From contig CAVUWD010000013.1 in assembly GCA_963745025.1 (NCBI GenBank), positions 160,001 through 224,000 of the forward strand: a DNA stretch of 64,000 nucleotides. The letters are read 5' to 3'. Positions 17,606 to 22,585 of the stretch are shown here, in pieces (within the stretch, counting starts at the first letter, position 1; each line of letters opens with the position of its first letter). This DNA comes from an uncultured delta proteobacterium. Its GTDB lineage: Bacteria > Desulfobacterota > Binatia > JACPRU01. The notes beneath the pieces are model-generated. The model saw only the letters and a list, made by a program, of their open reading frames with translations, ran no database searches and had not been told where the DNA came from. Made by a program: the position numbers and the translations under genes.

Positions 17606-17660
17606 GAAGAGGGACCCGGCCGCTCTTTTACGAGCCAGAAAAGGGACCGGATCCGTTTTC
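17606..17660. repeat. Inverted doublet of REP-like palindromes
   Basis: GAAGAGGGACCCGGCCGCTCTTT (17606-17628) versus reverse complement of GAAAAGGGACCGGATCCGTTTTC (17638-17660), 16/23 identical. Confidence 0.5.
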
Positions 17661-18809
17661 TGCATTGAGCGTGATCGCTTCGAGCAAAACCTCCGCCGCG
17701 AGCACCATGTCGTTGACGTCGAGCCACTCCTTGACCGTGTGAATGTCACGCATGCCCGTGCCGAGATTGGCGACTTCGAAGCCGCGACGGTTGAGGATGT
17801 TGGCATCGCAGCCGCCCCCCATGCCGGTCACGGTCACCCGGGCATCGACACGCTCCCCCGCGGCGACGATCAGCCGCACGATGGCCGAGGCGTCGGGCAC
17901 GTTCATCGCCTCGTATTCGCGTATCGCGGTGAACTCGACGCGCGCTCTCTCGGTCTTGCCGCCGATCGTCACGCTGTGGCGGGCGGCGGCGTCCTCGAAG
18001 CATTTTCGCATGTGCGCGGTTTGAGCCTCGAGCTTGTCGTCTCGGTGACTGCGTGCCTCGCCGCGAATCTCGACGAGATTGGGCACGATGTTCACGGCCG
18101 CGCCGCCGCGGATGATGCCGAGATTCGCGGTGGTCTCGTCGTCGATGCGGCCGAGGCGCATGCTTGCCACCGCCTCGGCGGCGATCTGGATCGCGCTCAT
18201 GCCCTTTTCGGGCGCCATTCCCGCGTGCGCCTCTAGGCCATGCACGCGCACGCTGATCGCGTTCGCGCCCGGCGCGCGCGTGAACAGAAAGCCCGGCGAG
18301 TCGCTGTCGAGGACCACGCCGCGCTTCGCCCGCAGCGGGCGGACATCGAGATGCTTGGCGCCGGCGAGGCCCTTTTCCTCGCAGATCGTGAACACGACAT
18401 CGATCGGCCCGTGCGGGATCTCGCGCTCGTGAAGCACCCGGAGGACCTCGCAGACGATCGCCACTCCGGACTTGTCGTCGCCGCCGAGCACCGTCGTGCC
18501 GTCGCTTCTCACGATGTCTCCGTCGACGATCGGCTTGACCCCCTCCCCGGGCACCACGGTGTCCATGTGTGCGGACACGAGGAGGGCCGGGGCTGCGGGC
18601 ACGGTCCCCGGAAAGAGGGCGATTAGGTTGCCGGTGTTGCCGCCGACCTTTTCACCCGCGTCGTCGAAGAGGATGCGGTCCGCGCCGAGATCGCGCATCT
18701 CGCGCTCGAGCCGCAGCGCCACGTCGCGCTCCTTCCGCGAGTGGCTGTCGATCCGCACGAGATCGAGAAGAAGGTCGCGGATTCTGGTCTTGTCGATGCG
18801 CGAGGTCAT
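17628..18809 (-). CDS. M20 family metallopeptidase, peptidase T-like
   Basis: SAHMDTV, LGGDDKSG, ICEEKGLAGAK, GGGCDAN, IHTVKE. Confidence 0.9.
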   Translation of the reverse strand: MTSRIDKTRIRDLLLDLVRIDSHSRKERDVALRLEREMRDLGADRILFDDAGEKVGGNTGNLIALFPGTVPAAPALLVSAHMDTVVPGEGVKPIVDGDIVRSDGTTVLGGDDKSGVAIVCEVLRVLHEREIPHGPIDVVFTICEEKGLAGAKHLDVRPLRAKRGVVLDSDSPGFLFTRAPGANAISVRVHGLEAHAGMAPEKGMSAIQIAAEAVASMRLGRIDDETTANLGIIRGGAAVNIVPNLVEIRGEARSHRDDKLEAQTAHMRKCFEDAAARHSVTIGGKTERARVEFTAIREYEAMNVPDASAIVRLIVAAGERVDARVTVTGMGGGCDANILNRRGFEVANLGTGMRDIHTVKEWLDVNDMVLAAEVLLEAITLNAENGSGPFSGS

Positions 18810-19556
18810 TCAAGGCCCGGTTGGCGCGAGGCGCTTCGCCGGGCGCACGACGACGAGAAAGCTGTTGCGCGCCGTCGCCCATTCACCGTCGATCGGAATG
18901 TGCAGCTCGCGGCGATCTCCCGGCGCGAAGCCTTCGTCGACTCGCCTGCGGTAAATGCGCAGGGCCTTTGCCTTCTCGGGTCCGAGTACCGTCACCGTGG
19001 CCGAAACCGCCGGGATGTGGAACATCGAGCGGTTCTCGACGACGGCGACCACGCTCGGAGGATGGGCCGCGAAGTCGGTGGAGATCTTCACGACCTCCAG
19101 CGCGTTGGGGTCGAAGCGAAAGGTGTCATAGACCCATGCTTGTGGCCCCGGCGGGAGCGAGATGCTGCGCAGAACGAGGCGGACCTCGTCGACGAGACCC
19201 TCGTCGACCTCGGAGTAGACGGGCGTAATCGCCACGATCTTGCCGTCGAGGTTGACGCCGAGGCGGATCTGCAGACGCCCTTCGAGCACGGAGTAATGGG
19301 TGAGAGAGACGTCGCTTTGTCGGTACGTCTCGTAGGCGGTCAGCACGTCTGGCTCGGCGGCGCGCAAGCCCTCTTCGATCTCGCGAACACGGCTCTCGGG
19401 GAGGGCGTCTCCGTAGATACGGATCTTCCCCGGGACGGCATCGGGAGGCGGCGGCACCGCGAGTGACATCGGTGTTGGCGGTGGGGCCTCGGCGAATCGG
19501 GCGCATGCGCCGAAGAAGACGAGTCCGACCCACCAAGCCCTCCGCAGGGATCGCAT
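18810..19556 (-). CDS. Hypothetical lipoprotein (TonB-C/AgmX-like domain plus FxLYD-like Ig domain)
   Basis: Lipobox-like FFGAC, Pro-rich linker, LEGRLQIRLGVNLDGKI, then VAVVENRS...VTVLG...FAPGDRRE. Confidence 0.55.
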   Translation of the reverse strand: MRSLRRAWWVGLVFFGACARFAEAPPPTPMSLAVPPPPDAVPGKIRIYGDALPESRVREIEEGLRAAEPDVLTAYETYRQSDVSLTHYSVLEGRLQIRLGVNLDGKIVAITPVYSEVDEGLVDEVRLVLRSISLPPGPQAWVYDTFRFDPNALEVVKISTDFAAHPPSVVAVVENRSMFHIPAVSATVTVLGPEKAKALRIYRRRVDEGFAPGDRRELHIPIDGEWATARNSFLVVVRPAKRLAPTGP

Positions 19557-19592
19557 CATCGAGGGACGGGATAGTTCAGCGGGGCGCCGGGG

Positions 19593-19745
19593 TCAAATCG
19601 GCTTCCGTTCGCGATCGAACCAGTCGATGGCGAGCTTCGCCGACTCGTCGAGCCAGGGGGGTAGATCTCGTCGTGCGTGATCGGCAAGCCGACGAGCTTC
19701 TCCGGCTCGCGGGAGCGCTCGTAGAGCCCCCGGTAGCCCTCGAAC
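19593..19745 (-). pseudogene. C-terminal remnant of an alpha/beta hydrolase
   Basis: LYERSREPEKLVGLPITHDEIY and PPWLDESAKLAIDWFDRE in adjacent frames; no N-terminus. Confidence 0.4.
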
Positions 19746-19894
19746 TTGCAGAGTGACCCTGTTCCCGTCCTCCCTAGCGCGACGTCCCCGCAACCCAAAA
19801 CGCGCCATGGTGACGATGCCTCCTATCTACACATGTTCGTCGAAAAACGAGAATTCCTACCGTGGTAGCTCGGATGCCTCCGCGCGCAGCATGC

Positions 19895-19923
19895 TTGACG
19901 CTACTCCCCGCCGCGACTACGGT
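19895..19923 (+). promoter_or_regulatory. Sigma70-type promoter upstream of the copper module
   Basis: TTGACG-N17-TACGGT. Confidence 0.55.
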
Positions 19924-19932
19924 CCGCACGCT

Positions 19933-20052
19933 AGCTCGGTAGGCTGCGTCGGTCGGAGATGGTTCGCGACCAACGGGAGCGATCCGTGGCGCAGTCTCCC
20001 AGCTCGGTAGGATACTGGAGCCGAAGGTGGTTCGCGACCGACGGGAGCGATC
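19933..20052 (+). repeat. Tandem 52-nt direct repeat (period 68) in the predicted leader
   Basis: AGCTCGGTAGG-N16-TGGTTCGCGACC(A/G)ACGGGAGCGATC at 19933-19984 and 20001-20052. Confidence 0.85.
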
Positions 20053-20071
20053 TCTGACAAACCTCATCGCC

Positions 20072-20440
20072 ATGTCGCGCTACCGCTCGCTCGCGATCCT
20101 CGTGCTCGCGCTGATGCTCTCGACGGGCTCCGCCGGCCTCACTTCGCTGGCGCTTCGCTGCGCGCGCTGCGGCCCGCACTGCCCGATGTCGGCGAAGCAC
20201 CTCGGATGCCACGATCGCGACAAGCCTGCGCACACCTGCCACGACCGAGGTGGAGCGCGGCTGACGTCCTGTGTGCACTCGGGCGAGACCGCGCCCGGTC
20301 TCGCCTGGCTGGCGATTCCGACGCCCGGCGCTGAGGCGCGGCCCCTCGTCGCGCTTCGCGAGCACCTGTCTCCGACCGATTCTCGCGGCGGCCGCGACGT
20401 TCCCGAGCCGCCGACCGAGCCACCGCGCCTTCTCGCGTAG
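20072..20440 (+). CDS. Secreted Cys/His-rich small protein with Pro-rich C-terminus (CutF/CruR/DUF2946-like regulatory upstream ORF)
   Basis: Signal-like N-terminus, CARCGPHCPM..GCH..TCH..SCVH, C-terminal PEPPTEPPRLLA; first gene of the copCD cluster. Confidence 0.7.
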   Translation: MSRYRSLAILVLALMLSTGSAGLTSLALRCARCGPHCPMSAKHLGCHDRDKPAHTCHDRGGARLTSCVHSGETAPGLAWLAIPTPGAEARPLVALREHLSPTDSRGGRDVPEPPTEPPRLLA

Positions 20441-20500
20441 CCGCCCAATCCACCACTACGAACCCGGGCCGCGGAAGGAGCGGCCCGCGAGGAGGATCTC

Positions 20501-21385
20501 ATGCGGAAGGCCGTTCTCGGCCCCGCCGCGGCGCTCGTCTTGGGGATTTACGCTCCCCGAGCGGATGCCCACGGCGTGGTCGGACAGAGGACGTTCATCG
20601 AGCCGTTCATCACCGAAGACGTGAACCCGAAGAACGAGTTCGTGATCGCGCGGCCCGAGTGGCACGACTCACGCGAGGGTCACGACCTGAGCGAAGGATT
20701 CAGCCTGGAAAAGAAGCTTGCCGACCGTCTCAGCCTGACGCTCGACTCGGCGTGGATCCACATCGCGCCCGAGGCCTCCGACGAGCCGAGCGAGAGCGGC
20801 TTCGACAACCTCGGGATCACGCTGAAGTATGCATTCTTCGAGAATCCCGATCACGAATCGATCGTGTCATTCGCCGTCGAATCCACGGCCCCGACCGGCG
20901 GCGCGGATGTGGGGGCCGAGGAGTACTGGGCGTTCAAGCCGTTCTTCCTCTATGGTAGAGGATTCGGCGACCTACCCGACTCCCTCCGGTATCTACGGCC
21001 GTTCGCCGTGCAGGGAGACTTCGGGCCCGAGGTGTCGACCGGGCCGGGAACGGCGACGACGTTCGCTCACAACATCTGTCTGGAATACAGCATCCCGTAC
21101 CTCCAAGCTGTGGTCCGGGATCTCGGCATCGGCTGGCCGTTCAACGACATCATCGCCGTCACGGAGTTCAACTTCGAGCACGGAGTCCACGGAGAAGAGG
21201 CCGGCAGGGACGTCATCAGCATGACGCCGGGCATCGTGTACATGGATCGCTACGTGGAGATCGGCTTCGGGGGGCGGGTTCCGCTTAGCGACGGCGCTCG
21301 CGACGACTTCGATTGGGGCCTCATCGGCATCGTCGATCTCTTCATCGACGACCTCTTTCCCTGGTCGCGATGGCAACCGTTTTGA
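20501..21385 (+). CDS. Putative outer-membrane beta-barrel, likely metal uptake
   Basis: Signal peptide ending ADA-H, amphipathic strands (GFDNLGITLKYAF, SMTPGIVYMDRYVEIGFGGRVPL), terminal Phe; upstream of copC. Confidence 0.6.
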   Translation: MRKAVLGPAAALVLGIYAPRADAHGVVGQRTFIEPFITEDVNPKNEFVIARPEWHDSREGHDLSEGFSLEKKLADRLSLTLDSAWIHIAPEASDEPSESGFDNLGITLKYAFFENPDHESIVSFAVESTAPTGGADVGAEEYWAFKPFFLYGRGFGDLPDSLRYLRPFAVQGDFGPEVSTGPGTATTFAHNICLEYSIPYLQAVVRDLGIGWPFNDIIAVTEFNFEHGVHGEEAGRDVISMTPGIVYMDRYVEIGFGGRVPLSDGARDDFDWGLIGIVDLFIDDLFPWSRWQPF

Positions 21386-21395
21386 AGGAGTCGCG

Positions 21396-21764
21396 ATGAG
21401 GGCACACCCGCTTCTGATCGGCAGTCTTTACGTTGCGGCACTGCTGTCGCACCCCCGTCCCGGCAACGCTCACGCATTTCTCGATCATGCGGAGCCGAAG
21501 GTGGGCTCGACCGTCCGCTCGCCGCCTGCTTCGGTGATGCTCACGTTCACCGAAGATGTCGAGCCGGCCTTCTCCAAGATCGAAGTCGTCGACGGCCAGG
21601 GAAAGGGACTCGCCATCGGCACTCTCGAGCATCCCGAGGCGCCGACGCTACGGGTATCACTGCCCGCCCTGTCGAGCGGGAAGTACCAGGTGCGGTGGAA
21701 AGTCGTCTCGGAGGACACCCACGAGACGCAAGGGACCTTCGAATTCTCGGTGGAGGCCCCATGA
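21396..21764 (+). CDS. copC: Copper resistance protein CopC
   Basis: GNA-HAFLDHAEP, LTFTEDVEP, YQVRWKVVSEDTHETQG. Confidence 0.9.
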   Translation: MRAHPLLIGSLYVAALLSHPRPGNAHAFLDHAEPKVGSTVRSPPASVMLTFTEDVEPAFSKIEVVDGQGKGLAIGTLEHPEAPTLRVSLPALSSGKYQVRWKVVSEDTHETQGTFEFSVEAP

Positions 21765-22585
21765 GCGTCGTCGAGGTCGCGATCGGCTGGGCCGACATCG
21801 CTGCGGCCACGGTTCTGGTGGGCGGATCGGCCTACGCGGCTCTGGTGGAAACGCCGCAAGCCTCGGGACGACGATGCCTCCGCTCAGCGGCGTCGGTTCT
21901 CGCTGCTGCGCTGGTGCTCGAGATCACCGTGAATTCGTTGCGCATGCACCGCCTCTTGGGGATGGGCGGCGCGACGCTCCTCGCGGACGTGCTCGAGATG
22001 AAGTGGACGCGTTGGTGGGCGCTGCGCAGCGTGGCGCTCGCCGCGCTCGCCATCGGCCTCCGTGCCGCTCGTCCGCGCTGGAGCTTGCTCGCGGGGATCG
22101 GCACCGTGTCGCTGCTGGCGCGTAGCCTCCAGGGCCACGCGGGCGCACACGGGATCCTTCCCGCCCTGATCGATTGGGCGCATCTCTCTGCGGCGACCGT
22201 CTGGGTCGGTGGCCTCGTCCAGCTCGCCCTCCTCCCGACCATCCCCCCGGCGGTCGCGTTGCGGGCGAGTAGGATGTTCACGCTGGCGCTTTGCCCGCTG
22301 GTCGCCGGCGGAGTCTATGGATCTCTTCTCCACGTCGCGGCGATAGAGCAGCTGGTCGCCACGCCCTACGGTCGAGTGCTGCTGGCGAAGATCACGCTTG
22401 CCGCCGTGGCGATCACGCTCGGGGCGATGAATCACTACCGCCACGTTCCGTGGTTGGTGCAAGGGAAGGCGGATGCGAGCGGGCTGCTGCGCGCCGTGAG
22501 GGCGGAAGTCGTCGTGCTCGCCGTCGTCTTGTTGCTGAGCGCTCTGCTCGGCAGCCTGCCGATGCCGCACGCGATGGCTCCGTGA
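21761..22585 (+). CDS. copD: Copper resistance protein CopD
   Basis: SLQGHAGA, DWAHLSAATVWVGGL, TPYGRVLLAK, LGAMNH. Confidence 0.85.
   Translation: MSVVEVAIGWADIAAATVLVGGSAYAALVETPQASGRRCLRSAASVLAAALVLEITVNSLRMHRLLGMGGATLLADVLEMKWTRWWALRSVALAALAIGLRAARPRWSLLAGIGTVSLLARSLQGHAGAHGILPALIDWAHLSAATVWVGGLVQLALLPTIPPAVALRASRMFTLALCPLVAGGVYGSLLHVAAIEQLVATPYGRVLLAKITLAAVAITLGAMNHYRHVPWLVQGKADASGLLRAVRAEVVVLAVVLLLSALLGSLPMPHAMAP

Follow-up and report, generated by a model that had tools for sequence, protein, structure and literature searches.

A candidate CutF-type leader peptide heading a barrel-CopC-CopD copper operon in an uncultured Binatia genome

In the uncultured delta proteobacterium represented by assembly GCA_963745025.1 (Desulfobacterota; Binatia), the window considered here, a 64,000-nucleotide (nt) stretch of contig CAVUWD010000013.1, carries a short open reading frame (ORF) at the head of a putative copper operon. 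This ORF, hereafter the leader, lies on the + strand at 20072-20440 (ATG at 20072, TAG at 20438-20440), encodes 122 residues, and is followed on the same strand by genes for an outer-membrane beta-barrel, for CopC and for CopD. Combining searches for homologs with predictions of protein and RNA structure, this report assesses how the leader is built, how its last codons pair with the barrel gene's ribosome-binding site, and how far the locus resembles the copper-responsive leaders CutF and CruR, a class of cis-acting regulatory peptide to which the leader probably belongs.

The leader has three parts. Its first 24 residues look like a signal peptide on inspection, with a basic n-region (MSRYR), a 12-residue hydrophobic run and the sequence GSAG, and an AlphaFold model places a helix at residues 2-18; the alignment behind the model was shallow, the mean predicted local distance difference test (pLDDT) score was 50.8, and no confident fold was obtained outside the signal helix. 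A Cys/His cluster follows at residues 29-69 (20156-20278), comprising C29-x-x-C32-x-x-H35-C36, C46-H47, C56-H57 and C67-x-H69. The third part is a conserved tail, EPPTEPPR, at residues 112-119 (20405-20428), after which come the variable last codons Leu-Leu-Ala and the TAG stop, such that the C-terminus reads PEPPTEPPRLLA and P117-P118 stands four residues from its end. The list of ORFs allows the same frame to be extended to an upstream GTG at 20027, giving 137 residues; however, the ATG at 20072 is preferred because the residues upstream of it vary among homologs. An earlier note on this DNA had described the 122-residue ORF with its signal-like N-terminus, Cys/His motifs and tail, as well as the RNA helix and hairpin treated below, and each of these proved correct to the base.

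A word-indexed search of 5.8 billion clustered proteins returned 12 homologs, all metagenomic, and a six-frame search found the leader in another genome of its own genus (G001, at 71 % identity) and in a member of another genus of the same family (G006; 47 %), making three of the eight genomes of the order; across 401 sampled genomes of the phylum the leader profile matched in only two. A HMMER profile pass over 1.84 billion representatives gave 51 proteins at E<=1e-3, and the 43 that were retrieved are nearly all 114-140 residues long, with a hydrophobic N-terminus and one and the same order of motifs, namely CxxCxxxCPMH, then CH, then C(x)H as a third, and at the C-terminus EPPT(D/E)PPR with 3-7 residues after it. 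Among 60 family proteins, CxxC..CPM is present in 53 and Pro-Pro within the last 15 residues in 56, the other four being fragments or misjoined, and in 53 of those 56 the Pro-Pro lies 3-7 residues before the stop. Twelve positions (C46, H47, C56, C67, H69, W79, L80, A81, P113, P117, P118 and R119) are invariant in 15/15 homologs. Where source names are given, they read 'hypothetical protein'. The Pfam scan of the window ORF gave no family at E<=0.1, and NCBIfam gave no match. The DUF2946 model PF11162 matched none of the 15 family members at E<=10, none of 21 related leader ORFs at E<=1 and none of 301 genomes of the phylum, while a six-frame search with it in the genome of the window had its best hit at E 0.2, elsewhere in the genome, and nothing over the cut-off. 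In the ESM Atlas one cluster is 25 % DUF2946 at a score of 0.93, which can serve as a lead only. By these comparisons the leader is genuine and conserved as a protein-coding gene, and it belongs to no named family.

The tail is kept for its amino acids. Its last eight conserved codons were compared in 20 distinct DNA versions, in which Pro is spelled CCG, CCC, CCA or CCT, and the Arg codon after Pro-Pro (20426-20428 in the window) is CGC in 11, AGA in eight and AGG in one. Since the amino acid, and not the bases, survives an exchange of CGN for AGR codons, the tail is selected as a peptide. AGA makes up 1.6 % of Arg codons in the genome of the window, so that a slow codon often stands directly after Pro-Pro; in the window and at this same position in L024, L027-L031, L033 and L035 (L numbers denote related loci), the rare codon may provide a slow-decoding site at the proposed pause. 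The residues after the tail Arg vary (LLA, LLAVVA, FLAAVA, AAS, LSVAA, ASFVLA and others), and their codons pair with the next gene's Shine-Dalgarno (SD) sequence. Judged from codon usage and pairing together, the leader tail is under selection as a peptide, and the bases that follow it as RNA.

That pairing is plain in the window. The last base of the Arg119 codon and the Leu-Leu-Ala codons make up an anti-SD arm, CCUUCUCGCG, and CCTTCTCGCG at 20428-20437 is complementary to CGCGAGGAGG at 20486-20495, giving a 10-bp helix with one U-G pair. The latter arm contains the GGAGG (20491-20495) that stands 5 nt before the barrel ATG at 20501, and between the arms the sequence is predicted to fold into an inner hairpin, GGCCGC (20467-20472) with GCGGCC (20480-20485) around a 7-nt loop. 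The 10-bp helix is present in the minimum-energy folds both of 20400-20520 and of the segment from Pro-Pro-Arg to the barrel start. As controls, 431 crudely called ORFs of the same genome were used, each rich in G+C at third positions and preceded, 5-12 nt ahead of its start, by GGAGG. Only nine of them have a contiguous helix of at least 10 bp over GGAGG, and when they are folded in the geometry of the window the probability that the SD pairs with tail positions, 0.999 at the target, is at least 0.9 in 12 and at least 0.5 in 60. At the window locus the tail outdoes all 106 other windows of the leader in binding the SD; in 9 of 29 loci the share of ORF windows that equal the tail in this is <=5 %. 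The predicted duplex between tail and SD has an energy of -17.3 kcal/mol for cognate and -15.8 kcal/mol for non-cognate pairs (permutation fraction 0.0022), a difference that is given little weight because the tails and SD flanks of one genome share their G+C. An Rfam scan of 19500-20700 at E<=10 returned only two sub-threshold minus-strand matches, to unrelated families. At 20429-20431 stands CTT, a rare codon that accounts for 6.2 % of Leu codons; that it marks selection at the RNA level was considered and then rejected, because the common CTC would pair at least equally well.

Comparison across related loci extends the pairing beyond a single sequence. Junctions were folded from 9 nt before the last Pro-Pro to 21 nt into the barrel gene, and the SD core pairs with the leader tail at a probability of at least 0.5 in 19 of 34 loci and at least 0.9 in 12 of 34, as against the 60 and 12 of 431 controls. 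Conservation of the helix in homologs had been proposed in the earlier note as a check on its reading, and the check came out in its favour: among seven close homologs with a complete junction the helix is kept in six (the window, G001, G006, L009, L010 and L013; probability 0.74-1.0), with compensatory changes, while L012, being cut inside the intergenic region, stands outside the count. In G006 the anti-SD arm has shifted onto the Pro codons. In G011, which has a different type of tail, CCUCCUCUC in the last codons is fully complementary to GAGAGGAGG at the SD. A plain MAFFT alignment of seven junctions has 85.1 % of helix cells paired, compared with 44-52 % when the arms are slid, and three pairs change on both sides. 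When 13 junctions of the window's leader type were aligned by a covariance model built from those seven, eight of the ten helix pairs were seen to change on both sides, 85.8 % of cells were paired (44-59 % when slid), the covariation score was 0.337 (0.09-0.15 when slid) and none of 500 shuffles reached it; the inner hairpin, helix 2 of the model, is 89.7 % paired over the 13 junctions.

Across the class, leaders of this general build recur ahead of the barrel gene. Thirty-two barrel loci were parsed, and G001, where the barrel gene is split between two frames, lacks the search motif, leaving 31. At 29 of these the barrel gene is preceded, at a distance of 39-214 nt and on its own strand, by a small ORF that has a hydrophobic N-terminus, contains Cys/His residues and carries Pro-Pro among its last 15 residues; the two others are L049 and L042, the latter truncated upstream by the end of its contig. 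Three types can be told apart. Type A is the family of the leader in the window. Type B (nine ORFs, at L038, L039, L043, L045, L047, L048, L050, L020 and L021) has a single '(L/I)(N/D)(I/V)CHP' motif, in which C-H-P is invariant, and a tail of PDPPPPK/R plus 3-7 residues. Type C has several Cys/His residues and tails such as RPPPLFRV or KPPALSLS. Types A and C are probably homologous, to judge from a profile comparison (hhalign 70.8 %, E 3.8e-5), while between types A and B hhalign detected no profile similarity (1.1 %), and type B has no Pfam match. The leader ORF of L027 (genome G031) is itself split between two frames, which could reflect an assembly error or a decaying copy.

What the three types have in common is a distance. 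In the 56 family proteins with a terminal Pro-Pro, the span from the last Cys to the last Pro-Pro has a median of 50 residues (interquartile range 49.75-50.25), and in the window C67 to P117 is 50 residues, the CxxC (C29, C32) lying 85 residues before the last Pro-Pro. The intervening stretch is rich in Ala, Pro, Val and Arg; although its sequence is poorly conserved, its length holds to within about one residue. In 26 of the 29 leader ORFs, all three types included, the last Cys-His stands 50-53 residues from the last Pro-Pro (51-53 in type B), the exceptions being L027, L032 and L022, whereas none of 15 control frames from the same loci with Cys-His and a terminal Pro-Pro falls at 50-53. This contrast is the strongest argument that the leaders are built to the geometry of a nascent chain rather than to a fold. 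More tentatively, and less likely than not, the 50-53-residue spacing, which is near the 48 residues of CruR and recurs in leader ORFs without a detectable sequence relationship, may reflect a rule of geometry that holds for metal-sensing arrest peptides in general and is imposed by the tunnel of the ribosome together with the translocon; the class would then hold at least two to three such sensors (of the EPPTDPPR, PDPPPPK and RPPxL types), which evolved separately or diverged beyond recognition, all gating a copper-uptake module made of the barrel with its N-terminal His, CopC and CopD, and often recruiting the rare AGA to lengthen the pause.

Downstream of the leader, the barrel gene (20501-21385, + strand) encodes 294 residues with a signal peptide. 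Its AlphaFold model has a pLDDT of 89.4 and a predicted template-modelling (TM) score of 0.82, and Foldseek relates it to FapF (5o68; E 3.5e-8) and to the COG4313 channel (4rl8; E 1.8e-6), both 12-stranded, at TM scores of 0.58-0.60. The fold match to these 12-stranded proteins comes with a sequence identity of about 10 %; the literature consulted on COG4313 and FapF proteins describes neither the H-G-x-V-G segment of the barrel nor a copper context. PF13557 scores 18.5 bits on the barrel, below the 22-bit cut-off, and some barrel homologs carry PF13557. With 417 homologs at E<=1e-5, bearing names such as 'Candidatus Binatia bacterium' and 'Deltaproteobacteria bacterium', the barrel is spread far more widely than the leader family; it occurs in 76 of 301 genomes of the class, a tally that takes in two unpublished genomes (G594 and G599) used for this count alone, and across the phylum in 4 of 401 sampled genomes. 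Conservation in the protein is highest at the predicted mature N-terminus, residues 24-46 (20570-20640), in which H24-G25-x-V27-G28...F32-x-E34-P35...D40..P43..E46 is invariant in 26/26 aligned homologs. The His directly behind the signal cleavage site, a feature also of CopC, hints at a copper site or a plug. The barrel gene of G001 (L002/L034) is split between two frames near residue 205, whether by assembly error or because the copy is decaying.

The two genes that follow are closely packed. CopC, a periplasmic copper-binding protein (21396-21764, + strand; PF04234 at E 1.6e-23 and 83.9 bits, cut-off 23.3), starts 10 nt after the barrel gene, with AGGAG 5 nt before its ATG. CopD, an inner-membrane copper protein (21761-22585, + strand; PF05425 at E 4.8e-15 and 56.3 bits, cut-off 32.1), has its likely ATG at 21761, overlapping the copC stop as ATGA (21761-21764); a listed alternative start, GTG at 21695, would overlap copC by 70 nt. 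The NCBIfam equivalog cut-offs were not reached for CopC or CopD, the copper_CopC model giving 79.7 bits against a cut-off of 95. The order leader-barrel-CopC-CopD, on one strand, is kept in G001 and G006.

Upstream of the leader, a promoter-like block on the + strand, TTGACG (19895-19900) and TACGGT (19918-19923) separated by 17 nt, is kept in all four aligned upstream regions (the window, G001, L009 and L010), the flanks differing, and may serve as the promoter of the operon. In G001 it stands 13 nt before the leader ATG, so that the transcript there would be nearly leaderless. A consensus promoter scan called no promoter-like site, the block at 19895-19923 included, and a terminator scan gave two terminator-like sites on the minus strand, no more than in shuffled sequence, and no intrinsic terminator on the + strand. 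Between the block and the ATG, in the 5' untranslated region, lie two tandem copies (19933-20000 and 20001-20071, + strand; 81 % identity, spacing 68) of a repeat of about 68 nt, which has more than 100 blastn-short matches over the contigs of the genome and the look of a repetitive extragenic palindrome (REP) or miniature inverted-repeat transposable element (MITE). The repeat is absent from this place in G001 and present once in each of L009 and L010. The repeat was considered as an operator or riboswitch and rejected as such, being dispersed throughout the genome and not specific to the operon. Divergently upstream, on the minus strand at 17628-19559, are a gene for an M20-family peptidase and a 249-residue ORF without a known family; because this pair is syntenic in G001 but not in G006, it probably lies outside the unit.

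Two characterized systems bear most directly on the leader. CutF of Rhodobacter capsulatus, encoded in cutFOG, is a 118-residue protein ending P109EPEGPPPRL118, whose signal peptide, Cys motif and Pro tail are all needed to open an SD-masking stem-loop, and its authors relate a 45-residue distance to the ribosome tunnel and SecY (PMC8456105, PMC9973294, bioRxiv 10.1101/2025.02.05.636593; here and below, likenesses are drawn to the consulted portions of the cited papers). CruR (Bp2923) of Bordetella pertussis, a DUF2946 (PF11162) protein, carries its CXXC at 90-93 and its RAPP at 139-142; the spacing between them is conserved in more than 2000 DUF2946 proteins, and a change of five residues in it impairs regulation. 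It acts through Rho-dependent termination over an intergenic region of 162 nt, can do without its signal peptide, and does not involve elongation factor P (EF-P) (PMC9426467). The earlier note had presented both as exported, Cys-motif, Pro-tailed leaders of copper genes, and what the consulted portions of these papers say agrees with that account.

With CutF the leader shares its small size (118 residues in CutF, 122 here), a mature Cys motif a fixed few dozen residues before a Pro run and Arg-Leu, and a position as first gene of a copper operon, before a short intergenic region whose structure, by prediction in the window, masks the next SD; where CutF has a Sec-type N-terminal signal, the leader has an N-terminus that resembles one on inspection. 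It differs in having CxxCxxxCPMH, CH and CxH where CutF has CxxxC, two Pro-Pro pairs where CutF has PPP, the 5' arm of the masking helix in its own last codons, and an outer-membrane barrel and CopC/CopD as targets where CutF has a multicopper oxidase; it comes, moreover, from an uncultured 'delta proteobacterium' of a Binatia-type class, has no DUF2946 match and is known from sequence alone. Like CruR, it is an upstream ORF at the head of a copper operon that includes an outer-membrane transporter, it pairs a Cys motif with a Pro-Pro arrest motif (in CruR, three residues from the C-terminal end), its C67-to-P117 distance of 50 residues compares with 48 from C93 to P141 in CruR, and CopC is among the genes of DUF2946 operons. 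Unlike CruR it has PPR and no RAPP, and it fails the PF11162 model; the CruR-family arrangement of CXXC about 45 residues before RAPP is absent, and C67-x-H69 occupies the CruR-like distance, while the leader does stand first in a copper transport/homeostasis operon, as DUF2946 members do. SecM, VemP and MifM are likewise exported leaders in which C-terminal arrest opens the SD-masking stem of the next gene, although they monitor the export machinery and not metal, and use other arrest sequences.

The published rules for 'CutF-like' proteins are a length below 150 residues, a signal peptide, Pro-Pro in the last 15 residues, a same-strand neighbour within 1000 nt and a Cys/His motif (PMC9973294, consulted in part). 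At 122 residues, with Pro-Pro in its last 15, 60 nt to the next gene and a Cys/His motif invariant in 15/15 homologs, the leader is by these rules a 'CutF-like protein', its signal peptide being judged by inspection only and its metal binding presumed. The RNA structure occluding the next SD that belongs to the CutF mechanism is present by prediction, with an ordinary opening energy. CopC, CopB and CopD are named among the neighbours of CutF-like genes in Proteobacteria, and CopC and YcnI in DUF2946 operons, so that the target operon is not new in kind; the barrel is unmentioned in the portions of the literature consulted. The leader family may already be among the 29 clusters of PMC9973294; the part of its supplement text that was examined contains no CopC, CopD, PF04234, PF05425, PF13557 or Binat. 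Within a limited library, literature on Binatia and copper, on CutF and CopD, and on COG4313 and copper describes neither the leader family nor the operon. The earlier note had stated a difference of the locus from the known examples, and here lineage and Cys/His set do differ, whereas the tail is near that of CutF and CopC/CopD had already been listed, so that the difference was overstated. Most likely the leader is a CutF-type leader outside DUF2946, in an uncultured soil lineage without a recognised member before.

The working of the favoured mechanism, that of a cis-acting leader peptide of the CutF/CruR type, can be set out in steps; the pause, the metal and its sensing site, and the sign of the copper response are what we infer from the computed gene, motifs, tail selection, spacing, operon and covarying helix. 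The leader would be translated and co-translationally exported. With a ribosome at Pro117-Pro118-Arg119, about 50 residues of chain would separate the peptidyl-transferase centre from C67-x-H69, placing the putative metal-binding segment at or just past the exit of tunnel and translocon. The state of the Cys/His segment, whether copper-bound, reduced or disulfide-bonded, would set the dwell time on the Pro-Pro-Arg codons, and a ribosome dwelling there would keep 20428-20437 in its mRNA channel and so free the SD. The footprint of a ribosome reaches roughly 15 nt 3' of the first base in its P site; with Pro117 (20420-20422) in that site, 20428-20435 would lie inside the ribosome. Translation of the barrel, and through tight coupling that of CopC and CopD, would then track the dwell time. 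Because every ribosome that finishes the leader must briefly open the helix, the pause would tune output and not create it. In favour of such a mechanism, the genome of the window encodes EF-P. Copper could either lengthen the pause (CutF-like, switching the operon on) or shorten it (CruR-like, switching it off). The role in uptake that is usually ascribed to CopC/CopD systems would suit a shut-off by copper of the CruR kind, while the SD-unmasking design is CutF-like.

Several points weigh against this mechanism. The fold of the 121-nt region is not exceptional (z = -1.39 against shuffles, 20 of 200 being as stable), and unpairing GGAGG costs 4.6 kcal/mol where the control median is 3.8 and 160 of 431 controls are equal or higher; with 300 of 431 control SDs paired somewhere at a probability of at least 0.5, the target SD is not unusually locked for a GC-rich genome, and its partner is the unusual feature. 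At 15 of the 34 loci the SD is not predicted to pair mainly with the tail, its partner being the intergenic region in 11 and the SD being mostly free in four, and in one close homolog, L011, the pairing probability is 0.01. Since the loci are related, such counts are not independent. On the seven-junction alignment, which was not fitted, as many double changes arise in 32 of 500 shuffles, and the 13-junction result is support and not proof, its alignment having been fitted to the structure and its sequences being related. Pro-rich tails are complementary by composition to G-rich SDs, so that part of the enrichment in pairing may be a by-product. To our knowledge, Pro-Pro-Arg is not among the strongest poly-proline stallers, and a gene for EF-P is present in the genome. 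No SD is recognisable on inspection before the leader's own ATG in the window, and a 122-residue protein with six conserved Cys could be a working periplasmic protein. The ribosome-stalling, metal-sensing reading of the earlier note is thus partly supported, by the invariant tail peptide, the kept helix and the recurring architecture with its 50-53-residue spacing, and tempered by an SD sequestration that is only typical.

Among the alternatives one fares best, although it is itself unlikely. The leader could be a working copper-binding accessory of the barrel, CopC and CopD, periplasmic or tethered to the membrane, its Pro-rich C-terminus contacting another protein and the tail-SD pairing serving only to couple translation, with no metal-dependent pause. 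In keeping with such a role are the six Cys conserved in the mature part and its several His, a length that is large for a leader peptide, strict co-occurrence with the barrel gene and the ordinary energy of SD opening, and the authors of the 2021 CutF paper, in the portion consulted, first proposed a chaperone with a polyproline-II contact surface. However, no confident fold is predicted, even if the alignment is shallow, and sequence between the motifs is poorly conserved while length is fixed within about one residue, the same spacing recurring in ORFs without detectable homology. The position of Pro-Pro at 3-7 residues from the stop in 53 of 56 proteins and the rare AGA after it in 8 of 20 versions likewise sit poorly with this role, and CutF, which is similarly built, acts in cis and, according to the portions of the literature consulted, is degraded after export.

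A CruR-like variant concerns transcription, and is improbable. Here the pause would shield the transcript from Rho, and release would lead to Rho termination in the 60-nt intergenic region, polarity acting instead of, or besides, unmasking of the SD. CruR, the other characterized member of the class, acts in this way as far as the consulted portion of its description goes; by inspection the first 25 nt after the leader stop (20441-20465) are C-rich and G-poor, and several related loci have intergenic regions of 98-214 nt. In the window, however, the intergenic region is short and mostly structured compared with the 162 nt reported for CruR, the conserved and covarying element is the SD helix, and no intrinsic terminator was called on the + strand. 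That helix and tail are unrelated, the pairing being a by-product of Pro/Leu codons meeting a G-rich SD in a 66 % G+C genome without any regulatory role, is very improbable, since, for all that most control SDs (300/431) find some partner and that the opening energy (160/431) and fold z-score (-1.39) are unremarkable, the tail specifically is the partner in 19 of 34 loci as against 60 of 431 controls, compensatory changes are seen, and the arm in the window lies in the variable Leu-Leu-Ala codons and not in Pro codons.

CutF and CruR were described between 2021 and 2025, the class being almost wholly from Proteobacteria, and both groups call the modes of action of many 'CutF-like' proteins unknown. 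As a probable cis-acting leader peptide, the gene described here would extend the class to an uncultured soil and sediment lineage that is without DUF2946 in the 301 genomes searched, and it would offer three handles, namely an invariant Pro-Pro-Arg tail selected as a peptide, a spacing of about 50 residues, and a covarying helix between the last codons and the SD. The data further suggest that CopC and CopD are usually partnered in this lineage by an outer-membrane barrel that is itself unstudied. If the tentative spacing rule were true, it could reveal metal-sensing leaders in any genome, without recourse to homology. The concept of a metal-sensing leader peptide would be left unchanged by these findings, but broadened, and the locus provides a compact system for experiments.

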